A stretch of DNA of 64,000 nucleotides from assembly GCA_023920165.1 (NCBI GenBank), contig CP089279.1:2108001-2172000 (forward strand), in the 5' to 3' direction. Origin of the DNA: Curvularia clavata. Taxonomy: Eukaryota. The translations under genes and the position numbers were made by a program. The notes beneath the pieces are model-generated. The model made no database searches. It was not told where the DNA came from and saw only the letters and a program-made list of their open reading frames with translations. This document shows positions 27,954-38,276 of this stretch, one piece after another (the first letter of the stretch is position 1; the number at the start of each line of letters is the position of its first letter).

Positions 27954-28432
27954 CTCGGAAGCACCAGAGGTTATATGTACATAGCTGAGAGTGTAAAATT
28001 ATACAAAGACATGTTAGGAGGGTACTCCGAGCGAAGTGCTATAGCATTCTTAGTTGTGGCGCTGTTGCGCAGGTATATTTATATAAGAAGTCTGATAGCA
28101 GCGAGCAATGAGTGAGGACAGAATAAGATTGACACATGCCTATCTAGGGCTCCTGGCTATCGATATTTATATAGGCAAGTAATACGTTCCTACGGGACGT
28201 CTTCTCGACGTTCTTCCTACACCATGGACGTGTGTGCGTGTGTGGTGGGGAGTTGAGTCGTATATCCATGAGACGTGATAGAACACATGCTTAGACACCG
28301 CACTGGAATCCATGCACGCCTATTTTAAGAGCGAATCATGAGTAGTAGAGGTAGAGGCTTACATACAGTCCTGTAGTAGTATTGAAATTGGCTTAGAGTA
28401 ATTGATACATAGAGTTGCAGAATCTGTTATCT

Positions 28433-31400
28433 CTACCTCACGGACTTTGAGCTTCTAATGCCTAGCTTTGCTAGCCCTTGTACCAGCTTTGACTGTTTGC
28501 CTGCGTATGCACGTCCACTACTATCCGTAGTTGGAGAAGAGACAGCAAGCTGGTGCTGCTTGTGCAATGCAAGCGCGTCAGTGTAGTGCTGGTGACACTT
28601 ACGCGTGGTTAAGTGAGCCCTCCCAAGCGCAGTTTCATACCCAGTGACCGCTCTCTCGTATAGAGCAAGAGCTTCGTTATAGTAATACTGATTTGTAAGA
28701 AGATTGGCAAGGCAGTGTACGCTCATCAGCGTAGATGTGTGCTTATGCCCGAGTACCTTCTCCTTCCGCGCCAGCGTCTGTCTGTTTATCGCTTCTGCCT
28801 CTTCGTATTTACCCTGGCTGCTTAGTACTTGTACTAAGTTATGCATACTTGTCAGCGTATCTAGATGCTCATGCCCAAGCACCTTTTCCATCAACGCTAG
28901 CGTCTTTCGGTTTATTACCTCCGCCTCTTTGTAATTGTTTTGCCTATTTAGTACTTGGGCTAAGTTGTGCATACTTATTAGCGTATCTGGATGCTCATAT
29001 CCAAGTACTTTCTCCCTCCGCGCCAGCGCTAGTCTGTTTATCGCCTCCGCCTCTGGGTACTTGCCCTGCCCGTATAGTAATAGCATCAAGTTGTGCATAC
29101 TCGTCAGCGTGTCTAGATGCTCAGGCCCAAGCACCTTCTCCCTCCACGCCAGCGTCTGTCTACTTATCGCCTCCGCCTCTTCGTGCTTGCTCTGGCTGTC
29201 CAGCACCAGCGCCAAGTTGCTCATGCTTGCCAGCGTATGTGGATGCTCATTCCCGAGCACCTTTTCCCTCCGCGCCAGCGCCTGTCTGCTTATCGCCTCC
29301 GCCTCTGGGTACTTGCCTTGGCTATCCAGTACTAGCGCCAAGTTGCTCAAACTCGTTAGCGTGTCTGGATGCTCGTACCCGAGTACTATTTCCCTCTGCG
29401 CCAGCGTCTGTCGGTTCATCGCCTCCGCCTCTAGGTGCTTGCTCTGGCTGTCTAACACTACCGCCAAGTTGCTCATACTCATTAGCGTATCTGGATGCTT
29501 ATACCCAAGCATCTTCTCTCTCCGCGCCAGCGCCTGTCGGTTTATTGTCTCTGCCTCTTCGTGCTTGCCTTGACTATTTAGCACTTGCGCCAAGTTGCTC
29601 ATGCTTATTAGTGTATCTGGATGCTTATACCCAAGCACTTTCTCTCTCTGCGCTAGCGTCTGTCGGTTTATCGCCTCTGCCTCTAGGTACTTGCTCTGGC
29701 TATCTAGCACTAGCGCCAAGTTGTTCATACTTGTCAGCGTGTGTGGATGCTTATGCCCAAGCACCTTCTTATACCCTGCCAGCGTTTGCCTGTGCATCGC
29801 CTCTGCCTCTTCGTACTTACCTCCAAGCTCTCTAGCTAGTCCTACCATCTCCATACTGTTCAGCGTTCTTATATCTTCTTCTCCAAACTCTTTGCTTCTA
29901 GTCTCCATCGAAATCGTCGCCATCTCTTCTGCTTCGCCTGCCCTCCCCTGTCGCCACGCATACCATGCTGCTCTATATAGCAACAACGCCCACTCTTTTC
30001 GTGACTCTCTACTCTTAGGCTGCTGTGATAGTGCCGCTCGTGTATGTGGAAACAGCGCTTGACACTTCTCCCAGTTTTCGTGCTCTCCTGTTGGCAGCTC
30101 TACGCACAGGTTTGAGATGAATTGCTCTCTCCACTTGTCTAGCTGCCCTTCGTTTTCAAGCCACGTACGCGTCGCTAGCTGTACTAGGCTGTGCATCTCA
30201 AACGTGTCTCTGGTTGCTGTAATAAACGAGTAGTCTCGCAGGGCTAGCACGTCGTCTTCAAATCTGTCATCTACTATACTACACTGTTGGTGGAGTAGAG
30301 CTTCCTGGATCCCCTGTCGGTCAAAGAAGCTCATTAGCGATAGCAGGTCTGCTGCTGACTGTCTTATACTTCGTATGTGGTTGAACGAGATCTGCCACGT
30401 TACTAAGATAGAGTTACTAGCCTCTAAGATGGAGTTGCTAGCTACTATACCTCGGCGAAGGTGACCCGCTTCGCGATTCAGTAGACTCGTTTTCCTGCGA
30501 TCGCTCTGCTGGTACTCCTTGAGATACTGCTGCACAGAGCACCGTGGTGCTCGCTCTCGAATATATGCTGCCGCCTGTACGAGAGCAAGCGGCATGTAAT
30601 CGAGCGTCGTAGCTAGTGTAGCGATGCTGTCGTCATCTTTGTCATCTATATCGCCTAGCTTCTTACGGAGCAGCGCATGTGCAGCCGCATCGTGCATTGG
30701 CTCAACTAGTATAATGTCACTATTCTCCACAATCTGCATCGCTGCGTGCTTTGCCCGACTCGTTATCAGGACTGTGCCGTATCTGCTGGGAGGCAGATAG
30801 CTCGATAAATGCTGCCGGAGACTACTGCTATCTGTCGGAGAGACTATAGCAGCATTGTCTATGTTGTCGAGCACTAATAGCCACTGTCCATTCTTCGCAT
30901 CGTGCAGCCAGTCGTGTACTAGCTTAAACACATCCACTTGCGGGTTCTTGCGCCCATAAGCCCTGACTTGGTTGGCGATCTCCTGGAAGCTCTGCTTAAG
31001 TCGCGCGGTGTTACTCGCATGCGCCCAGAACACCCATGTGTCCGGCGACTGTTCGGCAATGCGGTAGCAGTACTCGATGGCTAGCTGCGACTTCCTGTGT
31101 CGTATGTTAGGTGTGAGCACCAACCTAATGTTCCTTCCTTGGGCTTACCCCACGCCGCCGAGGCCCACCAGCGCTACCCGCGATGCTGGTGCTGCGCATC
31201 GCTTGCCAATCTGATCGAGCAGCGTTCCATGGTCGACGAAGTCTGGGTCGCGTCTAAACGGGACGTTGAACGACGGCTTAGGCGGCGTCTCGGGTCGTTC
31301 TAGCGTCGCGCTGTCGTCAGCGGCTAATAAACAAGCGCACGTATTTCAATAGCATTCAAGGCTGAGCTTACCTGGTGGTAGATAAGTGTAATTATATGCT

Positions 31401-32142
31401 AAAACCAGCATGGTCAGTACGAATTCATCGAAATGGACTTGGGCACGCTGTGAACTGATGCTAATAAAAAAGAAACCGCCTCGATTGAGAAATCAGTGTG
31501 ACCACGCGAGGACGGTAATTACGTACTGGAAGGGCCCTCATTGTACACACCAGGACTGATGATCTGCCGATTGTTGCTTCCACCAACTACATAATTCGTA
31601 GGACTGCCGCCTTCATTTGCAATAATGTTGCCCGCTCCAGCATGTGTATACTTGCCGTCCTCATCCCCTAGTGCTTCCGTAACTTGCTGCAGTGCATCCA
31701 GCTTGTCGCCAATAACATAGATCTCCTTCTGCTCTAACAGTCTCAAGTTGTCTTGAATGGTCACCAGAAGCTTCTGTACCTGGCTATCTCGGCCGAAGAA
31801 GACAGTCTTTGCGCCTCTCCAGATGCGCTTGGTACGATTCTCCCCATCTTTTGGGCACGCTTTCCTAAATATATCTCTTAGTTCAGCTAAAGCCTCCTCG
31901 CACTGTTTCAAAATCGGCTGTGCCTTCTTGCTGGCATCCTCTTTGATACTCTCTTCCTCGTAGCTCTCCTGCGCACTTTCCAACAGTTCTTGGATCGCTG
32001 GCAGCTTTTCGAGCAGGTCTCGAAGCTTTGGCGGTAATCCTTGAGCATCGTGAACGGCACGCCCAATGTCGATGATCGTATTAGCGATGCCGATGCAGGC
32101 GTCGATCAGCTGGATGGCGGTAATGGCTTCGGCACCGGACAT
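28433..32142 (-). CDS. NLR-like protein: SesA-like N-terminal domain, Gly/Asn-rich motif, NB-ARC, TPR array (~1151 aa, 4 exons)
   Basis: Exons 32142-31527, 31398-31372, 31299-31149, 31094-28433 join in frame (3456 nt). Splicing rebuilds ERPETPPKP..VPFRRDPDFV and P-loop GLGGVGKSQ. Walker B WLLVLDNID, LPLAL-like MPLAL, about ten 42-aa TPRs. Confidence 0.85.
28620..29880 (-). repeat. 126-bp tandem repeat array encoding TPR units
   Basis: Repeated xHPDTLxSMxNLAxVLxSQxKxxEAEAxxRQxLAxREKVLG units. Confidence 0.9.
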
Positions 32143-33000
32143 TTCGGATCATCGGTGCGTACACAAGCTGGGTGTGTTGGGTAGGTATGGGCGCGTATTC
32201 CGGAGGCAGGAGGGTATTCTAGCAATGCAGGCAGGCAGGCAGGCAGGCAGACAGGAAGGCGAGCAAGTCGCTTATAAACCAGACCGACAAGGTCCTCGTG
32301 GGGCTAGGACTAACATAGGCGCTTGCGCATGCATCAGAGGAGCTGCATGTTCATATCTTAGGCTGGGCTGAGAGCTGTCGAAGGCCCCCGGGGGTTCCAC
32401 CTTTCGGGCAGGCAGGCGCTTAGCTACCGCTCGCGATATGTGATAGATTATTACCGCTAATATACTTGCGGCTTTTCTATACGACCTGCAGCTAACGCCT
32501 TAAGCCGTTGATCCTGCAGAACTTGCACTGCAGCGCCACAATATTAGATACCGTGATACTTCGCTCGGGACAGACTCTTTGTATATGTTTGTATAGCCTT
32601 ACGAACTCTGAGATATATGCGAGAACCCTGCAGTACTTCCGAGGCCGCCACACGTGGAGGAATAGTAATCTGTATTCGTGTCACTTGATATTCATGGCTA
32701 TGGCTGCGTGTGCAGTCTTTGCAACGAGTGCAGTCATTCGTGTGTATGCACGCATGTGTACAAGACCCATCTTATCACCATCCTCCTTTTTAACGGTAAC
32801 GTACCGTAATGTGCTCAGGAAGTTTGAGTGTGTCTCTGGGTTTGCAGATCCCGCATCACCTGCCTCAGCATCCTCTGTCTCTGTTCTGCGAGTCAAGGCC
32901 TACATCCAGCAATCTCGCGCGCCTCTTCGTCCTGTGGAAAAGGGGGTAATCAACCCTTGGAGTCGCATTTCATATTCTTTGCTCGTGCGTGCAATCTTAT

Positions 33001-34038
33001 TCAGGCTCTCCCGTCCAATCCAACCTGAACAGCACCCCACCGATCAATGCTCCTTTTAATTAGACCCGCCATCTGCTCTCTACTCACGACACCGCCACCA
33101 CTTTTCTCTACCCTCTTGATCACCAGATCCTTCGTGCCCTTCTTCCCATCTCTGCAGTCTACGACTACGCTGACCGTCTCTCTGCATACAGCTTCCTCAA
33201 AGGCATCAGGGTCGCTGAGTACCCAGTCCACTTCCTCATCTTCTTCTTTCCTGCCTTCGAAAACCGCAAACGTGCTGGGTATTGGCAGACCTTGAAGCTG
33301 CAGTCGGCGCGCTTCTTGGGGATCGTCAGAGCATAGTATTCCCTCATACTCTTCGTCAAAGTATGCATGTGGTATCAGAGTGTCGCGCAGAGCAGCGAGG
33401 ATAGAGATCCATGCTGCATCAAACGCATTGCCATCGATGCTTATGAAAAAGATATCCAAATACAGAACCCAGTAGCCCTTGAGTTGTGTCTCTGGTTCCG
33501 ATTCGGGGTCCTCAGGGTTGGTAGAGGGCCTGTATAGAATGCGGAGGTCGGAGGCGCGGAGTAGGCGTGTTGAGTGAATGAGCGATCGTATCCGAGTAAT
33601 GAGCGTTTGTGCGTATGTCGACGGAGCGTTGCCTGGAATATGCGACGGTGTGCTGCCAGTGGAGAGCTCGACGTTGGGAACTACGAGTCGCAGCGCTTCC
33701 ACTTCTTCGCTACTTTCCTCTTGCTCTGCCTCCTGATTTGTGGACGCGCCGGAATACTCAAAGGTACCTGAAATATCCTCCTCCTTCAAGATTTCCGCGC
33801 GAACACCACAAACCACACTTGTGTTGCCTAGACGCACGACTGCACTGCCATTGCAATGGGTCAGGCTACCCGTATTTATCCCTGGCGTTCGGAATTCATT
33901 GGCTGTTCGACCATTCGCGCGTACGGACTTCTTCTTCTCAGCAGAGAGGTGTGCTTGGAGGAAAGGATGTGGAGAGACGGCGGCGAAGATGGGGCGGGGG
34001 AATGTGAGCGCCGGCGGTGGACGGGCCTCGGTTGCCAT
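33001..34038 (-). CDS. RRP43: Exosome complex RNase PH-like subunit Rrp43
   Basis: RANGR..EFR, NGSAVVRLGNTSVVCGVRAE, LVVPNVELSTG, WVLYLDI..IDGNAFDAAW. Confidence 0.85.
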   Translation of the reverse strand: MATEARPPPALTFPRPIFAAVSPHPFLQAHLSAEKKKSVRANGRTANEFRTPGINTGSLTHCNGSAVVRLGNTSVVCGVRAEILKEEDISGTFEYSGASTNQEAEQEESSEEVEALRLVVPNVELSTGSTPSHIPGNAPSTYAQTLITRIRSLIHSTRLLRASDLRILYRPSTNPEDPESEPETQLKGYWVLYLDIFFISIDGNAFDAAWISILAALRDTLIPHAYFDEEYEGILCSDDPQEARRLQLQGLPIPSTFAVFEGRKEEDEEVDWVLSDPDAFEEAVCRETVSVVVDCRDGKKGTKDLVIKRVEKSGGGVVSREQMAGLIKRSIDRWGAVQVGLDGRA

Positions 34039-34448
34039 CGCAAGTCAATTCGTATGTCGTGGTATTCACGGAGAGGAAGAGCGGAATGCGGCGCGGCTGA
34101 TCGTGTTGGGTGAATGTCGATGTTGGGAAATTTTGGAGCTCAGAGCTATGACGCGCTAAGTTTAAGCTTATTAGTGTGGGGCATCGAGAATCACACGCAT
34201 AAAGAGATCGACAATCTGTAAATGAAACAGATAGACCGTAGGATCAGGGACAATTAGTTCCCGTTAATCGGGATTCGAACTGTAATGCTAGTAAAACCGC
34301 ATGCTCAACGTGCGCTGTGCAACAGGGGGTATTCGATCGAAGAAAAATGCACCACGAAGCTCCTCTACCGCACCCATACATCCAAACACGATCCGGATGC
34401 TACGATTTGTAACAGCCACCCTGTATGAATTTCAACAGCGATTGGAAA

Positions 34449-35729
34449 CTAACCAGTGCTCAGGCCGGCCTTGCCAGTCTCCTGCACAGGCGTCCACTTG
34501 CCCTCCTTCTTGAACTGGTCACCCCTTAATGTGGCCTGGGCAAGCTGGGAAATCAAGTAGTCTCGACCCTTGATCATCCACACCATCTGGCTGGGTACCT
34601 TGAAACCATTGAATGCACCGACACCCTTCTGCGTACCGATAGGGCAGATTTGTTGTTCCTTTAGGTTTGCAGTATAGTGACGGTCGCCCTTGTGCGGCTC
34701 ACCAGTCAAGTGAGCAAGCAGATCGTTTTTGAGGTTCGTCATGGCTACAGGTATCGCATCGTACATGTCCATGACGCCTCCTCGTGTGTATGAGCCAACA
34801 TCGCCGACTACGTAGACCCGGGGACCGGCGGATTCGTGTTCGACGCGGAGGGTCTTTGGGTTACAAGCAACACGGTTGCGGTTGTCGAGCCACTCTTTAG
34901 GGAGAAATCCGGTATTTGGACGACTGCCGGTCGCATCGATGTAGATGTCTGCCTCGAGAATCTCTCCATTTGAGAGATCTACTCTTGTCTTTCCGCCTTC
35001 CTCCTCGCTCATCTTGGCTGACCCGATGACCCGTACGTCATAGGTGACATTGCACCCAAGTCGCTTTAAGAATTGCTCAGCAGTCTTTCCAATGGCAGGT
35101 CGGAGAAGAGGCAGGAGCTGCCTGTCGGCACAAAAGAGCTTAATTTGTGCTTTGGGATTCTTGGGCCCAGACGCCATGAAGCCTGGTCTTCCATTTAAGA
35201 TCTCTGCGATCTCTCCTGCTGCCTCGACACCCACTGGTCCACCCCCGCCGATAATTACAGTCTTAGCCGTCTTGAGCTCATCCTGGAAAGTAGCGTGCAC
35301 TTTCTCAAGGGCTGCGCGATCCGTGCTTTGGGTAAAAAGTGGACTGGGCGTCGTAAATCCGGTTGCAATCACGAGTGCTGCATATTGAATAGATTGCATT
35401 TCGCCGGATGTTGTCTGAACGGTGACAGTTTGCGCAGCGGCATCCACCTGGGTTGCAAGGCCTTGGACAAACTTAAACTTGGGAGAAGCATAGGTAAACG
35501 CAGGCTCGATAGGTAGGAAGGTCTTGTCGGACGGCATCATCTGCTTAGAAACGATTTCTCGCGGTGCAGCGATGCGCCACCAAAGATCCTTCGATGGGTT
35601 AACAATAGTGACACTGTAATTAACTCCCTCCTTCTTGGGGAGCTGCGGTAGCACATGCCGGAGCACATAGTGAGCAGCACTAATGCCGGCAAAAGATCCG
35701 CCGATTATGAGAATGGTTTCGGTACTCAT
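34449..35729 (-). CDS. AIF/AMID-like FAD-dependent pyridine nucleotide-disulfide oxidoreductase
   Basis: IIGGSFAGI, LVIATG, IGGGGPVGVEAAGEI, VYVVGD. Confidence 0.88.
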   Translation of the reverse strand: MSTETILIIGGSFAGISAAHYVLRHVLPQLPKKEGVNYSVTIVNPSKDLWWRIAAPREIVSKQMMPSDKTFLPIEPAFTYASPKFKFVQGLATQVDAAAQTVTVQTTSGEMQSIQYAALVIATGFTTPSPLFTQSTDRAALEKVHATFQDELKTAKTVIIGGGGPVGVEAAGEIAEILNGRPGFMASGPKNPKAQIKLFCADRQLLPLLRPAIGKTAEQFLKRLGCNVTYDVRVIGSAKMSEEEGGKTRVDLSNGEILEADIYIDATGSRPNTGFLPKEWLDNRNRVACNPKTLRVEHESAGPRVYVVGDVGSYTRGGVMDMYDAIPVAMTNLKNDLLAHLTGEPHKGDRHYTANLKEQQICPIGTQKGVGAFNGFKVPSQMVWMIKGRDYLISQLAQATLRGDQFKKEGKWTPVQETGKAGLSTG

Positions 35730-36613
35730 CTTAGGTCGCGTTGCTTGATGGTGCGCTCGAGATGAATATTTGGCAAAGGAAACAAGGAGTAAACAAAGGG
35801 GTCGAAGAAGAAATTACTGCGAAGACGCGCCGTATTAAAGTTTGGACGCGCTTCAAGCCTCAAGGAAAGTCGCAGTGGGGAGCCGTTGGAAGGCGAATCG
35901 AGAACACAAAAGTGTCTTGGGCGTTTCGTCGCAAGTGCTTACCCATGCGTACCTATATAGACTTTGCAGATTCCCCTTGTCGCTGTCTGAGCTCCGCATA
36001 TGCTCAACCTCCTGAATCGCATTGATGATCGGACTTCAACAAGCGTGTCGCAATATCTTGGAGGCTTGCGGGCGCGACGCTAAACAAGACACGCTAGCCC
36101 CTTTGCACCTAGTTTTCATGACCGATCTGTCCCTGACAAGCGTTCGGGAATCTGACTTGCGGCAGACACGTGTGCCAGCCATTCCAATGAACACCAAGCT
36201 ATACCCCATCTATACTCCAAGCCTCCGGTTCACGAGTATTGTATACGAGTCATGGATGTACATCGTGATCATCGATAGGCCTGTGAATGCCTGGACAGGG
36301 ACCCAAGCATTCGGGCCATGTTGAGTCCAAGACGTGACAGTTCACGAAGCATGCATGCGCATACTTGTCGAGCTTGCAAGCGGGGCGCAGCGGCAACATG
36401 GAGAACGTGCTAGAAGACTTTCATTCATATCCTTTTTTTCTGATATAACGCCAGCCGGCATTTGCATGCTAAACCCGCCGCGACTGCTGACCGTAATGAT
36501 CATTGCATTCATGAAGCCCTCAATATCAATATACATGCGGCAGGCCGTCGTTGCACGTAACCTCCTTCTCAACTCTGCCTAAGTCTTTCTTGAGCTACAA
36601 CTTGGATAGCTGC

Positions 36614-37485
36614 TTACTCGACCTCGGCCTTGGTCTCGAAGTTCTCACCAGCGACGAGCTCAGGGATGTCATCGTCATCCTCGTCATCCTCGTCCTTCTT
36701 CTCGCCGTCCTCGCCCTTCTCCTTCTGCATGCTCTGGTAAGACTCGGCCAGTTTGCGTAGCGATGCGAGCGAGTCGGGTCCGAGCTGGTTGAGAATGCCG
36801 GGGACGAGCTCTGTCAGCTCCTTGTCCTCACCGTGTCCGTAGATGGCAAAGGTGTTGGCGGGAACTGAGGCGTGAACTACAGTGACAGAAATGTCAGTTT
36901 CTGTTTCGACATCAAAGCGAAGAGTGTCCAGTTGACCAAGATGTTTGCGCGTCTTCCACGGCGCAACACTTGCTCAACTTGAACTGCCCCTGTAGTATAA
37001 CAGAGAGCGGAGATCTGGTGACATACCCTTGGGCGCCGAGAAGTGGATGACGTTGCCGTCGCTCTTGAACATGTTGACCTCCTCAATGGCCTGGATGGGC
37101 TGGACGTTGAGCTTCTTCAGGGCAGTCTGGAGCTTCTTGTCGTCGGTACCAGCGCCCCTGTGGACCTTCTTGACCTTCCTGCGGGGAGTGCCCTTGCCGC
37201 TATAGATCCAATTAGCTTCGTCTACCTCATGAGCTCAATCTCCACTCCGGACTGGTTCTTCGATTATAGCGGGGTGCGGCGGGAGTTTCACAAATTCCGT
37301 GTGGTACTCGGTGCGGGGCTGTCAAAATAGATGATGAGAGTCTTGCTTACCCTGTGCACATGTGTTAGCAGTTGTATATCAGAGAGACACAACCAATGGC
37401 CTCCTTAAACAAGCTCAAGCTTGAATTTCCTCGACATACCAATGCGCACTGACGCCTGCATACGCGCCAACTTTGCGTGATCCAT
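36614..37485 (-). CDS. EGD1: Nascent polypeptide-associated complex beta (BTF3), 160 aa; exons 37485-37440, 37351, 37199-37027, 36876-36614
   Basis: [63 protein letters not shown]. The frame requires a 1-nt exon at 37351. Confidence 0.93.
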
Positions 37486-38276
37486 ATTTGCGGTGTTGAG
37501 AGAGAAGGCTCGTGAGTGGAGAGAACTGTGGCAGCCAAACGTCAGCGGTCGGTTCCAATTGCACGGGGGTTCGAGCGGTCGAAACTGGAGCGGGCACGGG
37601 ATCGTACGCACCTAAATTCGGGATCGTGGCCGAGTCTTGGAGTGTGGTGTAGCTGGTGAAGTTGTTGCGGGCATCGGCGAAACTCTACGGAAGCGCCGAT
37701 TGTGTGCTTGCCTCGCTTGTCGAATGCTCTTCCCCGCAACGTCAGAGGGCGCGCGCTCTCCCACAACTAGCATGAATGACTGTGACAGATACCGCTACTT
37801 TTGGAGGCAGAATCGTTCGTGCTAAGAACACAGTAAACAATAAGTAACTGTGACAAGTACAGCTACTTTAAAAAAAACAGAATGCCATCTCCGGTTTCAC
37901 CAGCTGTGGGAGAGGTGCGCCACCGACAGTCAATCAGAGCGCTCACGAACACGACATGCATTCTTCACCATGCGGGACCGTCATTTGAGAGATACTTGGT
38001 TCTATTATAACCCATACCGCTGACATGCACTCAGCAAGCCATTGGCTAAACGTCAGTCGCCTCTCCAATATTAGAAGCTTTCTTGGCACCAGCTGCTTCA
38101 CATACAGCAGGCCATCTGAACGTAAACTAGACGCAAACACCATTGAGTCGCATGCGCTGGTTGGCGAGAACCTGCTGGAGAAAAAAGTAAAGGGCTCAAT
38201 TGTACACGCATAAATACGCTATGAAATCAGGAATTTGTTAAACTTGCTGCCACCTCCATCCACTCTAAAACGCTAC

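Follow-up and report, generated by a model that had tools for sequence, protein, structure and literature searches.

Fungal NOD-like receptors (NLRs) activate separate effectors by amyloid templating (PMC5485727), and both two-gene pairs and all-in-one NLRs carrying a SesA domain are already known (PMC3321046, PMC12881547), with the question of fusion or fission between the two layouts left open in PMC3321046. In N. haematococca, sesA comprises 210 codons (PMC516043) and forms amyloid in yeast (10.1101/205690). NLRs that combine an effector with an internal amyloid motif are also in print, four of them with a HeLo-like domain and a σ motif and one with a HeLo-like domain and a PP motif (PMC9815663). 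Here we describe a gene on the minus strand of a 64-kb stretch of the Curvularia clavata genome (contig CP089279.1, positions 2,108,001 to 2,172,000; hereafter the window), which encodes an NLR with an N-terminal SesA domain followed by a glycine- and asparagine-rich (G/N-rich) motif. The donor of its first intron contains an in-frame stop codon that appears to be maintained across the family, so that the same exon could serve either as the N-terminus of the receptor or as a free effector. The genome searched comprised 32.4 Mb in eight contigs.

The SesA-NLR gene starts with an ATG at position 32142 and its nearest named homologs are from Dothideomycetes. Four exons (32142-31527, 31398-31372, 31299-31149 and 31094-28433) encode a product of exactly 1151 amino acids (aa) with the domain order SesA, G/N-rich motif, NB-ARC and TPR. 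The SesA domain matches PF17107 at residues 13-136 (E 1.7e-25) and Pfam also recognises TPR_10, in ten stretches, and TPR_12. Pfam gives no direct NB-ARC match for the exons of the window itself, in which intron 3 interrupts the P-loop; the Walker A, Walker B and MHD-like motifs are all intact and PF00931 is matched on B. maydis homologs that are 91% identical. Judged by these motifs and by the homologs, the nucleotide-binding oligomerisation domain (NOD) is assigned to NB-ARC. An N-terminal effector, intact NOD motifs, C-terminal repeats and a single transcript, by which a fungal NLR is recognised, are all present, and the gene is an expressed four-exon NLR of Dothideomycete type with the architecture SesA-motif-NB-ARC-TPR. 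The donor of intron 1, a phase-1 intron, reads GTACGTAA (31526-31519) and brings a TAA (31521-31519) into frame two codons into the intron. A transcript retaining intron 1 is predicted to encode 207 aa, and retention of intron 2 or intron 3 would give 222 or 265 aa, respectively. The original prediction had described a SesA-like domain followed by a candidate amyloid motif at 31656-31528, a stop two codons into the intron-1 donor, and a choice between a spliced product of about 1151 aa and an unspliced one of 207 aa; the coordinates hold, PF17107 confirms the SesA domain, the stop is where it was placed and both lengths hold. The features of the gene, all on the minus strand, are as follows.

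32670..32804, minus strand: intron in the 5′ untranslated region (UTR), upstream of the coding sequence; joint 32669/32805 (CT..AC) at depth 9.5 and an inner contig at depth 14.5, both in run X1.
31527..32142, minus strand: coding exon 1, with SesA, a linker helix and the G/N-rich motif; X1 contig with 0 differences.
31735..32106, minus strand: SesA helical-bundle effector domain, residues 13-136 (PF17107; AlphaFold2 helices 3-159).
31528..31656, minus strand: candidate amyloid signalling motif, G/N-rich, of three sub-units; σ/PUASM-like by eye only.
31519..31526, minus strand: intron-1 donor with an in-frame stop at +6 to +8 (TAA, 31521-31519), from the sequence and the family.
31519..32142, minus strand: open reading frame (ORF) of 207 aa for SesA plus motif, a putative short isoform; read from the ORF, with no contig over intron 1.
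31399..31526, minus strand: intron 1, 128 nt, with a branch-point-like CTGAC at 31417-31413; joint 31398/31527 in X1, X9 and X10.
31372..31398, minus strand: 27-nt microexon (YNYTYLPP), placed where the motif exon of PP-type NLR paralogs has its tail.
31300..31371, minus strand: intron 2, 72 nt, with the same location as the first intron in four paralogs that have a PP motif; seen as joint 31299/31372 in X1 and X10.
31149..31299, minus strand: exon 3, the start of NB-ARC up to the P-loop; closest paralog 84% identical.
31095..31148, minus strand: intron 3, 54 nt, interrupting Walker A; seen as joint 31093/31148 in X1 and X9.
28433..31094, minus strand: exon 4, the remaining NB-ARC (Walker B, MHD-like) and the TPR array; RNA contig over 31093-30308.
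28628..29761, minus strand: nine tandem 42-aa TPR repeats, the first eight with a mean nucleotide identity of 78%.

Transcription of the gene was followed in four of 24 runs (X1, X9, X10 and X14), compared over 29900-37800 as assembled contigs, a form of data that drops rare or minor transcript variants. Three of the four are presumed to be RNA, with GT-AG joints at this gene and at a neighbouring gene (36876/37027), and X14 spans part of exon 1 only and is uninformative on splicing. All three predicted introns were seen as CT..AC joints in the RNA contigs, with spliced joints in three of the four runs: X1 shows all three introns, X9 shows introns 1 and 3, and X10 shows introns 1 and 2. A single 2109-nt contig of X1 spans 32670 to 30308, covers exons 1 to 4 with 0-4 differences per piece and leaves exactly 27 letters for the microexon. 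This contig places SesA and NB-ARC in one transcript, which disposes of the possibility, raised with the original prediction, that their exons are never joined. Skipping of the microexon, which would be in frame and give 1142 aa, was not found in the contigs; several annotated homologs are modelled in this way. An alternative acceptor for intron 2 (GACAG), which would shift the frame to a 217-aa product, was rejected; the RNA contigs use another joint. Two homologs derived from assembled runs, P0007 (226 aa) and P0169 (222 aa), read as having intron 1 spliced and intron 2 retained, and such retention of intron 2 represents a second route to a short SesA+motif product.

A stop codon adjacent to a donor is not remarkable in itself. 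Among 148 donor-like hexamers in the window, 24 are followed by a phase-1 stop within three codons and 59 by a phase-2 stop, and a stop at +6 to +8 is found in 5 of 55 intron-like pattern matches. Five of the 11 other SesA-profile matches in the genome (L024-L028) end at a phase-2 GTAA, a putative donor in each case; these endings arise because the donor consensus forces them. On these background counts (24/148, 5/55 and 5/11) the idea that the stop is exceptional per se was rejected, and, at the level of sequence, the intron-1 stop stands out from chance only by being conserved across the family. As the first frames of L024-L028, which match a SesA/HeLo-like profile, end at GTAA, effector-only products could arise from these loci also.

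This conservation is evident in the DNA of relatives. Nine metagenome loci of the family were recovered, six of them intact and reading GTACGTAG at the donor where the window reads GTACGTAA, and GTACGTAR is therefore present in 7/7 intact loci with the window counted. Position +8 is occupied by stop-forming purines only (TAG in the six loci, TAA in the window), and donors 2 and 3 are variable in the same loci in which GTACGTAR is invariant. L007 and L008 are identical broken copies that have kept the donor, and L003 has lost it by deletion. In all seven intact loci the donor is followed by a branch point, an acceptor and a further exon in frame, and NOD sequence lies downstream in six of them (L004 ends after the microexon), of the NB-ARC type in the window, L001, L005 and L006 and of the NACHT type in L002 and L009. 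The four-fold-site identity of L009 to the other loci is 0.23-0.47, indicating that silent sites are saturated, and its donor octamer is unchanged; in the more distant locus pairs the introns have otherwise diverged to 57-79% identity. As read from these loci, exon 1 with the first eight bases of the intron makes up a complete ORF of SesA size, and across the family this exon-1 module appears as a portable cassette, spliced onto an NB-ARC-TPR or a NACHT(-ANK) chassis. A possible cryptic acceptor lies in the middle of intron 1 (31461-31495, minus strand), with a CTGAT branch-like site, a U-rich tract and TTAG; the CTGAT is not conserved in L001 or L002.

The protein homologs show the same ending. 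Among the 120 listed of 156 matches (median pairwise identity 67%), 108 end within eight residues of the last Tyr of the motif, eight read on and four are truncated, and all 19 clusters at 70% identity stop at the motif end. The last two residues of the 108 are ST in 89, SM in six, GT in five and others in eight; SK or SE, which donors GTAAGT and GTGAGT would yield, are found in none, and deletion variants shorter by three codons keep the ST ending. One of the eight read-through homologs is a spliced form and one is frameshifted, with the remaining six falling into about 3-4 lineages; none has Tyr at the position of the stop, and they terminate 11-78 residues past the last Tyr of the motif. 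The 98 further cluster members comprise 85 that stop at the motif end by pattern and two more by eye, four that read on, four long annotated NLRs and three without a motif end. For a neutral expectation, change was calibrated on the DNA loci and applied to a tree of 121 sequences (length 17.2), with exclusion of the four truncated proteins, P0007, and P0085, which has a frameshift inside the motif. The expectation is about 30 changes at +7 and, counting transversions only, about 13 at +8, hence some 43 losses of the stop, and about four are seen; the Poisson P is 5e-14 for both sites and 2e-6 for +8 alone, where none was seen, or 6e-6 and 2e-3, respectively, at half rates, under a rough model of our own that assumes the proteins to derive from spliced loci, as checked for seven. 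The stop thus looks to be kept under purifying selection, far beyond this rough neutral expectation.

The peptide that the stop would expose is conserved almost to the same degree as the effector domain. The motif is about 41 residues long, with 19% Gly and 15% Asn over 116 homologs, and has a top-residue frequency of 0.73 compared with 0.79 in the SesA domain. In an AlphaFold2 monomer, residues 3-159 are helical and the per-residue confidence (pLDDT) is below 50 over residues 162-207; a structure prediction with four motif copies (score 0.02, mark 0.32) is not evidence either way. By eye, the three units recall the A-B-A layout of σ (A, GxGxQFNxx; B, GGTQNINT; PMC3321046), GSGRQFN is present in one homolog cluster, and the first unit, a short HTGxGN, resembles part of a validated PUASM peptide (PMC9815663). 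A strict σ A unit was found in 22 of the 116 and a strict B unit (GGTQN) in one, and loose patterns of our own making in 112, 105 and 97. Scoring against σ and PP profiles, as suggested with the original prediction, left the motif below the cut-offs. Nor did the family profile score the σ or PP motifs that this genome carries, 58-219 of 1000 shuffles reaching its score in the case of PP. The σ search of the genome matched only C4:4002543 and not the SesA-NLR motif, Pfam HET-s_218-289 had no match in 13 proteins, the pseudo-palindromic G-hydrophobic-Q-x-G core of PP and the PUASM pattern FxGxGxQxxG each occurred in 0/116 homologs, and the window is absent from the six Ses_B (PF17046) matches in the genome. 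Assignment of the motif to σ, PP or PUASM was rejected by these profile and pattern tests.

The motif is present in 26 of 29 long homologs, mostly between SesA and NB-ARC-TPR or NACHT. In P0161 it lies at the very N-terminus of an NB-ARC protein without SesA (55 bits, 0/1000 shuffles), a single record that could be a truncated model. The 18 matches to the motif profile, a narrow one built from seven sequences, include SesA proteins, fragments, two NB-ARC proteins and one 3394-aa repeat protein, and a weak search by the motif alone among long proteins returned four family members among nine candidates. No relatives of the family were found in prokaryotic genome contigs and the donor-plus-stop pattern was unmatched in viral contigs. 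P0161, P0138 and P0142 are labelled Quercus suber yet belong to this fungal family, probably as a result of fungal contamination. We consider the conserved motif a candidate for a new amyloid signalling family.

Position makes a stronger case for the motif than profiles and patterns do. The five closest paralogs of exon 3 (L032-L036; 61-84% identity) have an ATG and a PP-like motif before the same NB-ARC start. Four of them carry an intron where the SesA-NLR gene has intron 2, and L032 shares 76% nucleotide identity over 1666 nt with the SesA-NLR gene. The G/N-rich motif occupies the slot of these PP motifs, and the microexon matches the tail of the exon that encodes them. As in amyloid signalling motifs, it is directly N-terminal of the NOD; it would be C-terminal only in the putative unspliced ORF. 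Among these paralogs, L034, L035 and L036 are further NB-ARC NLRs, each with a short PP-like motif at the N-terminus. Other motif systems are also present in this genome. L011/L013 (G000:C7:953143-954255) and L012/L014 (G000:C5:867914-869060) are head-to-head pairs of the classical two-gene kind, each consisting of a protein that ends in a PP motif and an NB-ARC NLR with a PP motif. The NB-ARC paralogs L037 and L038 share a different, G/T-rich N-terminal stretch with AAGGTTNF, possibly a further motif type. At L017 (G000:C4:4002543-4002647) a short frame, possibly a remnant, holds a canonical σ motif that passes the Pfam cut-off, with no obvious NOD adjoining it within the locus.

The likely output of the SesA domain was approached through its fold. 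The model matches MLKL (6ux8) with Z 10.0, a root-mean-square deviation of 3.4 and 140 aligned residues, with unrelated bundles ranking higher (Z 13.1), and Foldseek returned no match at E 0.001. Fold searches thus failed to single out MLKL or HET-S, since generic bundles outrank MLKL. SesA is reported to be remotely similar to HeLo domains (PMC5485727). In N. haematococca, sesA has been connected with σ propagation and pigment, and the growth defect with sesB (PMC3321046, PMC516043); no sesB neighbour was present among the flanking ORFs scanned.

The explanation that we favour, with about an even chance of being right, is that one gene yields a receptor together with a minor amount of a free SesA-type effector that is recruited through the shared motif. 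The stop would be kept because a minority or condition-dependent transcript, arising by intron-1 retention or intronic polyadenylation, makes the 207-aa SesA protein with its motif free. Ligand binding at the TPRs would oligomerise the long form, the internal motifs of which may then stack into an amyloid seed; this seed would template the short form at its free motif and so bring together many more SesA bundles than a single NLR oligomer has, and the clustered bundles would deliver the output. Membrane damage is the probable output in view of the reported likeness of SesA to HeLo domains and the MLKL match, itself ranked below unrelated bundles, and selection for a free C-terminus would be explained by the finding that a tag C-terminal to PUASM prevented foci (PMC9815663). 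In this way a single gene would supply the amyloid amplification for which two genes are employed in HET-S/NWD2 and in sesA/het-eN. We put forward more tentatively, and at somewhat less than even, the wider proposal that the gene is a complete amyloid signalling pair, Dothideomycete-wide, in which donor-plus-stop splicing sets the ratio of receptor to effector, an unclassified amyloid motif links the two, and exon 1 is portable between NB-ARC-TPR and NACHT-ANK.

The claim that one locus encodes both receptor and effector accordingly stands in part: SesA and NB-ARC are joined, the stop is conserved, the short product has the canonical SesA size and the motif sits in the PP slot, but intron-1-retaining or intronically polyadenylated RNA was not seen in the contigs of the three spliced runs. 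Several observations weigh against this explanation. No contig over intron 1 was found in X1, X9 or X10, and bin depths equal the exon-only expectation in X1 (11.6 vs 11.55; 23.9 vs 23.86), X10 (3.0 vs 3.0, with an exon-1 depth to which relatives contribute) and X9 (3.43 vs 3.43). Because X1 holds both the spliced and the unspliced form of the 5′ UTR intron (32804-32670; depths 9.5 and 14.5), abundant retention of intron 1 should have appeared; minor retention or a short intronic 3′ end may escape detection, since contigs drop rare variants. The endings of 4/108 homologs are incompatible with the donor, DNA context is to hand for just seven homologs and some of the 108 may be stand-alone genes, which bears also on the assumption behind the Poisson test, and the GTAA endings of L024-L028 belong on this side as well. 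With regard to the motif, none of the 13 proteins tested reached a Pfam cut-off for an amyloid signalling motif, the best score being a sub-threshold one for NACHT_sigma (PF17106, E 0.95 in 1/13), 258 of 1000 shuffles reach the score of the family profile against the genome's own σ motif, the hhalign probability is 0.2%, and no second motif carrier, either SesA+motif or motif-only, was found in the genome among the best candidates, which alone were scored.

The spliced-only contigs are what would be expected if the gene were an all-in-one NLR and nothing more, with the internal motif scaffolding its own oligomer, no short protein at work and the octamer an RNA element, either a weak regulated donor or an unproductive-splicing switch acting through nonsense-mediated decay to set receptor dose. 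PMC9815663 proposes internal motifs as oligomer scaffolds and lists HeLo-like+σ NLRs, and the complete invariance of the heptamer GTACGTA is expected of a cis element, yet position +8 alternates solely between the two purines that complete a stop codon, and a retained 128-nt intron would presumably meet a stop within a few dozen codons regardless. Decay would need no exact stop position, because read-through homologs end 11-78 residues after the Tyr; we regard this explanation as possible but improbable. That the short isoform is instead a brake or decoy, buffering the motif or the SesA bundle and holding the receptor off, draws on the same conservation of the stop and has a parallel in plant TIR-NLRs, which require truncated isoforms in set ratios (PMC4100160). 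Pore formation by SesA is undemonstrated and the growth defect is tied to sesB, which is also in keeping with a brake; the product, however, has the size and architecture of canonical SesA, an amyloid-converted component of the σ system, and we consider a brake unlikely.

Slightly more doubtful still is that the stop is a passive leftover of a captured stand-alone sesA, compounded by annotation, with many of the 207/208-aa homologs having been copied recently or standing alone as genes. As expected after a fusion, the microexon and intron 2 correspond to the end of the first exon of the PP-motif paralogs, 207/208-aa stand-alone proteins are annotated in Bipolaris, Acidomyces, Cercospora and Hortaea, and most of the 120 listed homologs are without DNA context. 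All seven intact loci, however, continue beyond the stop with branch point, acceptor and an exon in frame, six of them with a NOD, and the octamer is unchanged though the silent sites of L009 are saturated and introns have otherwise drifted to 57-79% identity in distant pairs. Under all of these readings, the gene probably arose when a sesA-like gene was captured upstream of an NLR with an amyloid motif. The suggestion of a fusion intermediate fits the anatomy as far as origin is concerned. It does not fit a passing stage, since the layout has been maintained while silent sites diverged to saturation.

Further features of the locus were noted. The X1 transcript of the upstream gene for an exosome-type RNase PH (32670-34120, minus strand) reaches 32805 and is joined over the 135-nt intron to the 5′ region of the NLR, in both spliced and unspliced forms; read-through or overlapping UTRs are possible, and contigs cannot prove a single transcript. 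Over the NB-ARC/TPR region (28000-30500, minus strand) TpA/ApT is raised to 1.2-1.8, and among the TPR repeats G>A changes predominate (50), a pattern that resembles repeat-induced point mutation, though the frame stays open.

If one gene does give rise to both products, it would represent a third architecture beside the two-gene and all-in-one layouts, a living bridge in the question of fusion or fission, linking the two layouts with splicing as a dial for signal amplification. This would explain the split among annotators between a 207-aa stand-alone protein and a long NLR, and surveys of short N-termini and of neighbouring genes would therefore miss the family. In the mostly open-access literature, and in the supplements of PMC9815663 in part, we found no report of a single fungal gene that is spliced to give an NLR and an amyloid-motif effector. 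In the portions of these sources available, splicing is absent from PMC3321046 and PMC12881547, appears in PMC9815663 only as truffle mini-exons, and in PMC13449251 concerns gene curation, truffle and brown algae. What is new is the conserved donor-plus-stop across the family; internal motifs, all-in-one NLRs and the truncated isoforms of plants are known.

The closest counterpart in content is the σ system sesA/sesB/het-eN, in which, as here, SesA carries a C-terminal three-unit extension rich in G, N and aromatic residues and is linked to an NLR, with 210 codons compared with 207 aa; in that system, however, the effector and a SesA-less NLR are separate genes and the motif is σ, whereas here exon 1 is spliced into the NLR and the motif fails the σ profile tests. 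The proteins ERS98545.1, KIH87757.1, KFY17804.1 and RBA11842.1 (PMC9815663) share the order of effector, motif (at about residue 185-212) and NOD, but these HeLo-like+σ/PP NLRs are a few Sordariomycete or Leotiomycete proteins with NACHT-type or unannotated NODs, read as scaffolds at most, and neither splicing nor a short isoform is described for them in the accessible parts of that paper; here the family is widespread in Dothideomycetes and its intronic stop is conserved. The same fusion of SesA, NOD and repeats is known from all-in-one SesA/HeLo-like NLRs, of which P. anserina NWD3 is one (PMC3321046); in the present gene a conserved motif separates the effector from the NOD, and there is a stop through which the effector would be released on its own. 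Two-gene PP systems of the HELLP/PNT1 type, among them the pairs L011/L013 and L012/L014 of this genome, use the same NB-ARC-TPR chassis, and L032 shares the position of the first intron, but their first exon consists of an ATG and a PP motif where this gene has SesA, a different motif and a microexon. The plant TIR-NLRs RPS4, N and RCT1 need a short product beside the full receptor and obtain it by retaining an intron or using a cryptic exon (PMC4100160); those short forms keep TIR-NBS, lose the LRRs and have no amyloid motif, whereas the short form predicted here would be the effector alone with its motif free.

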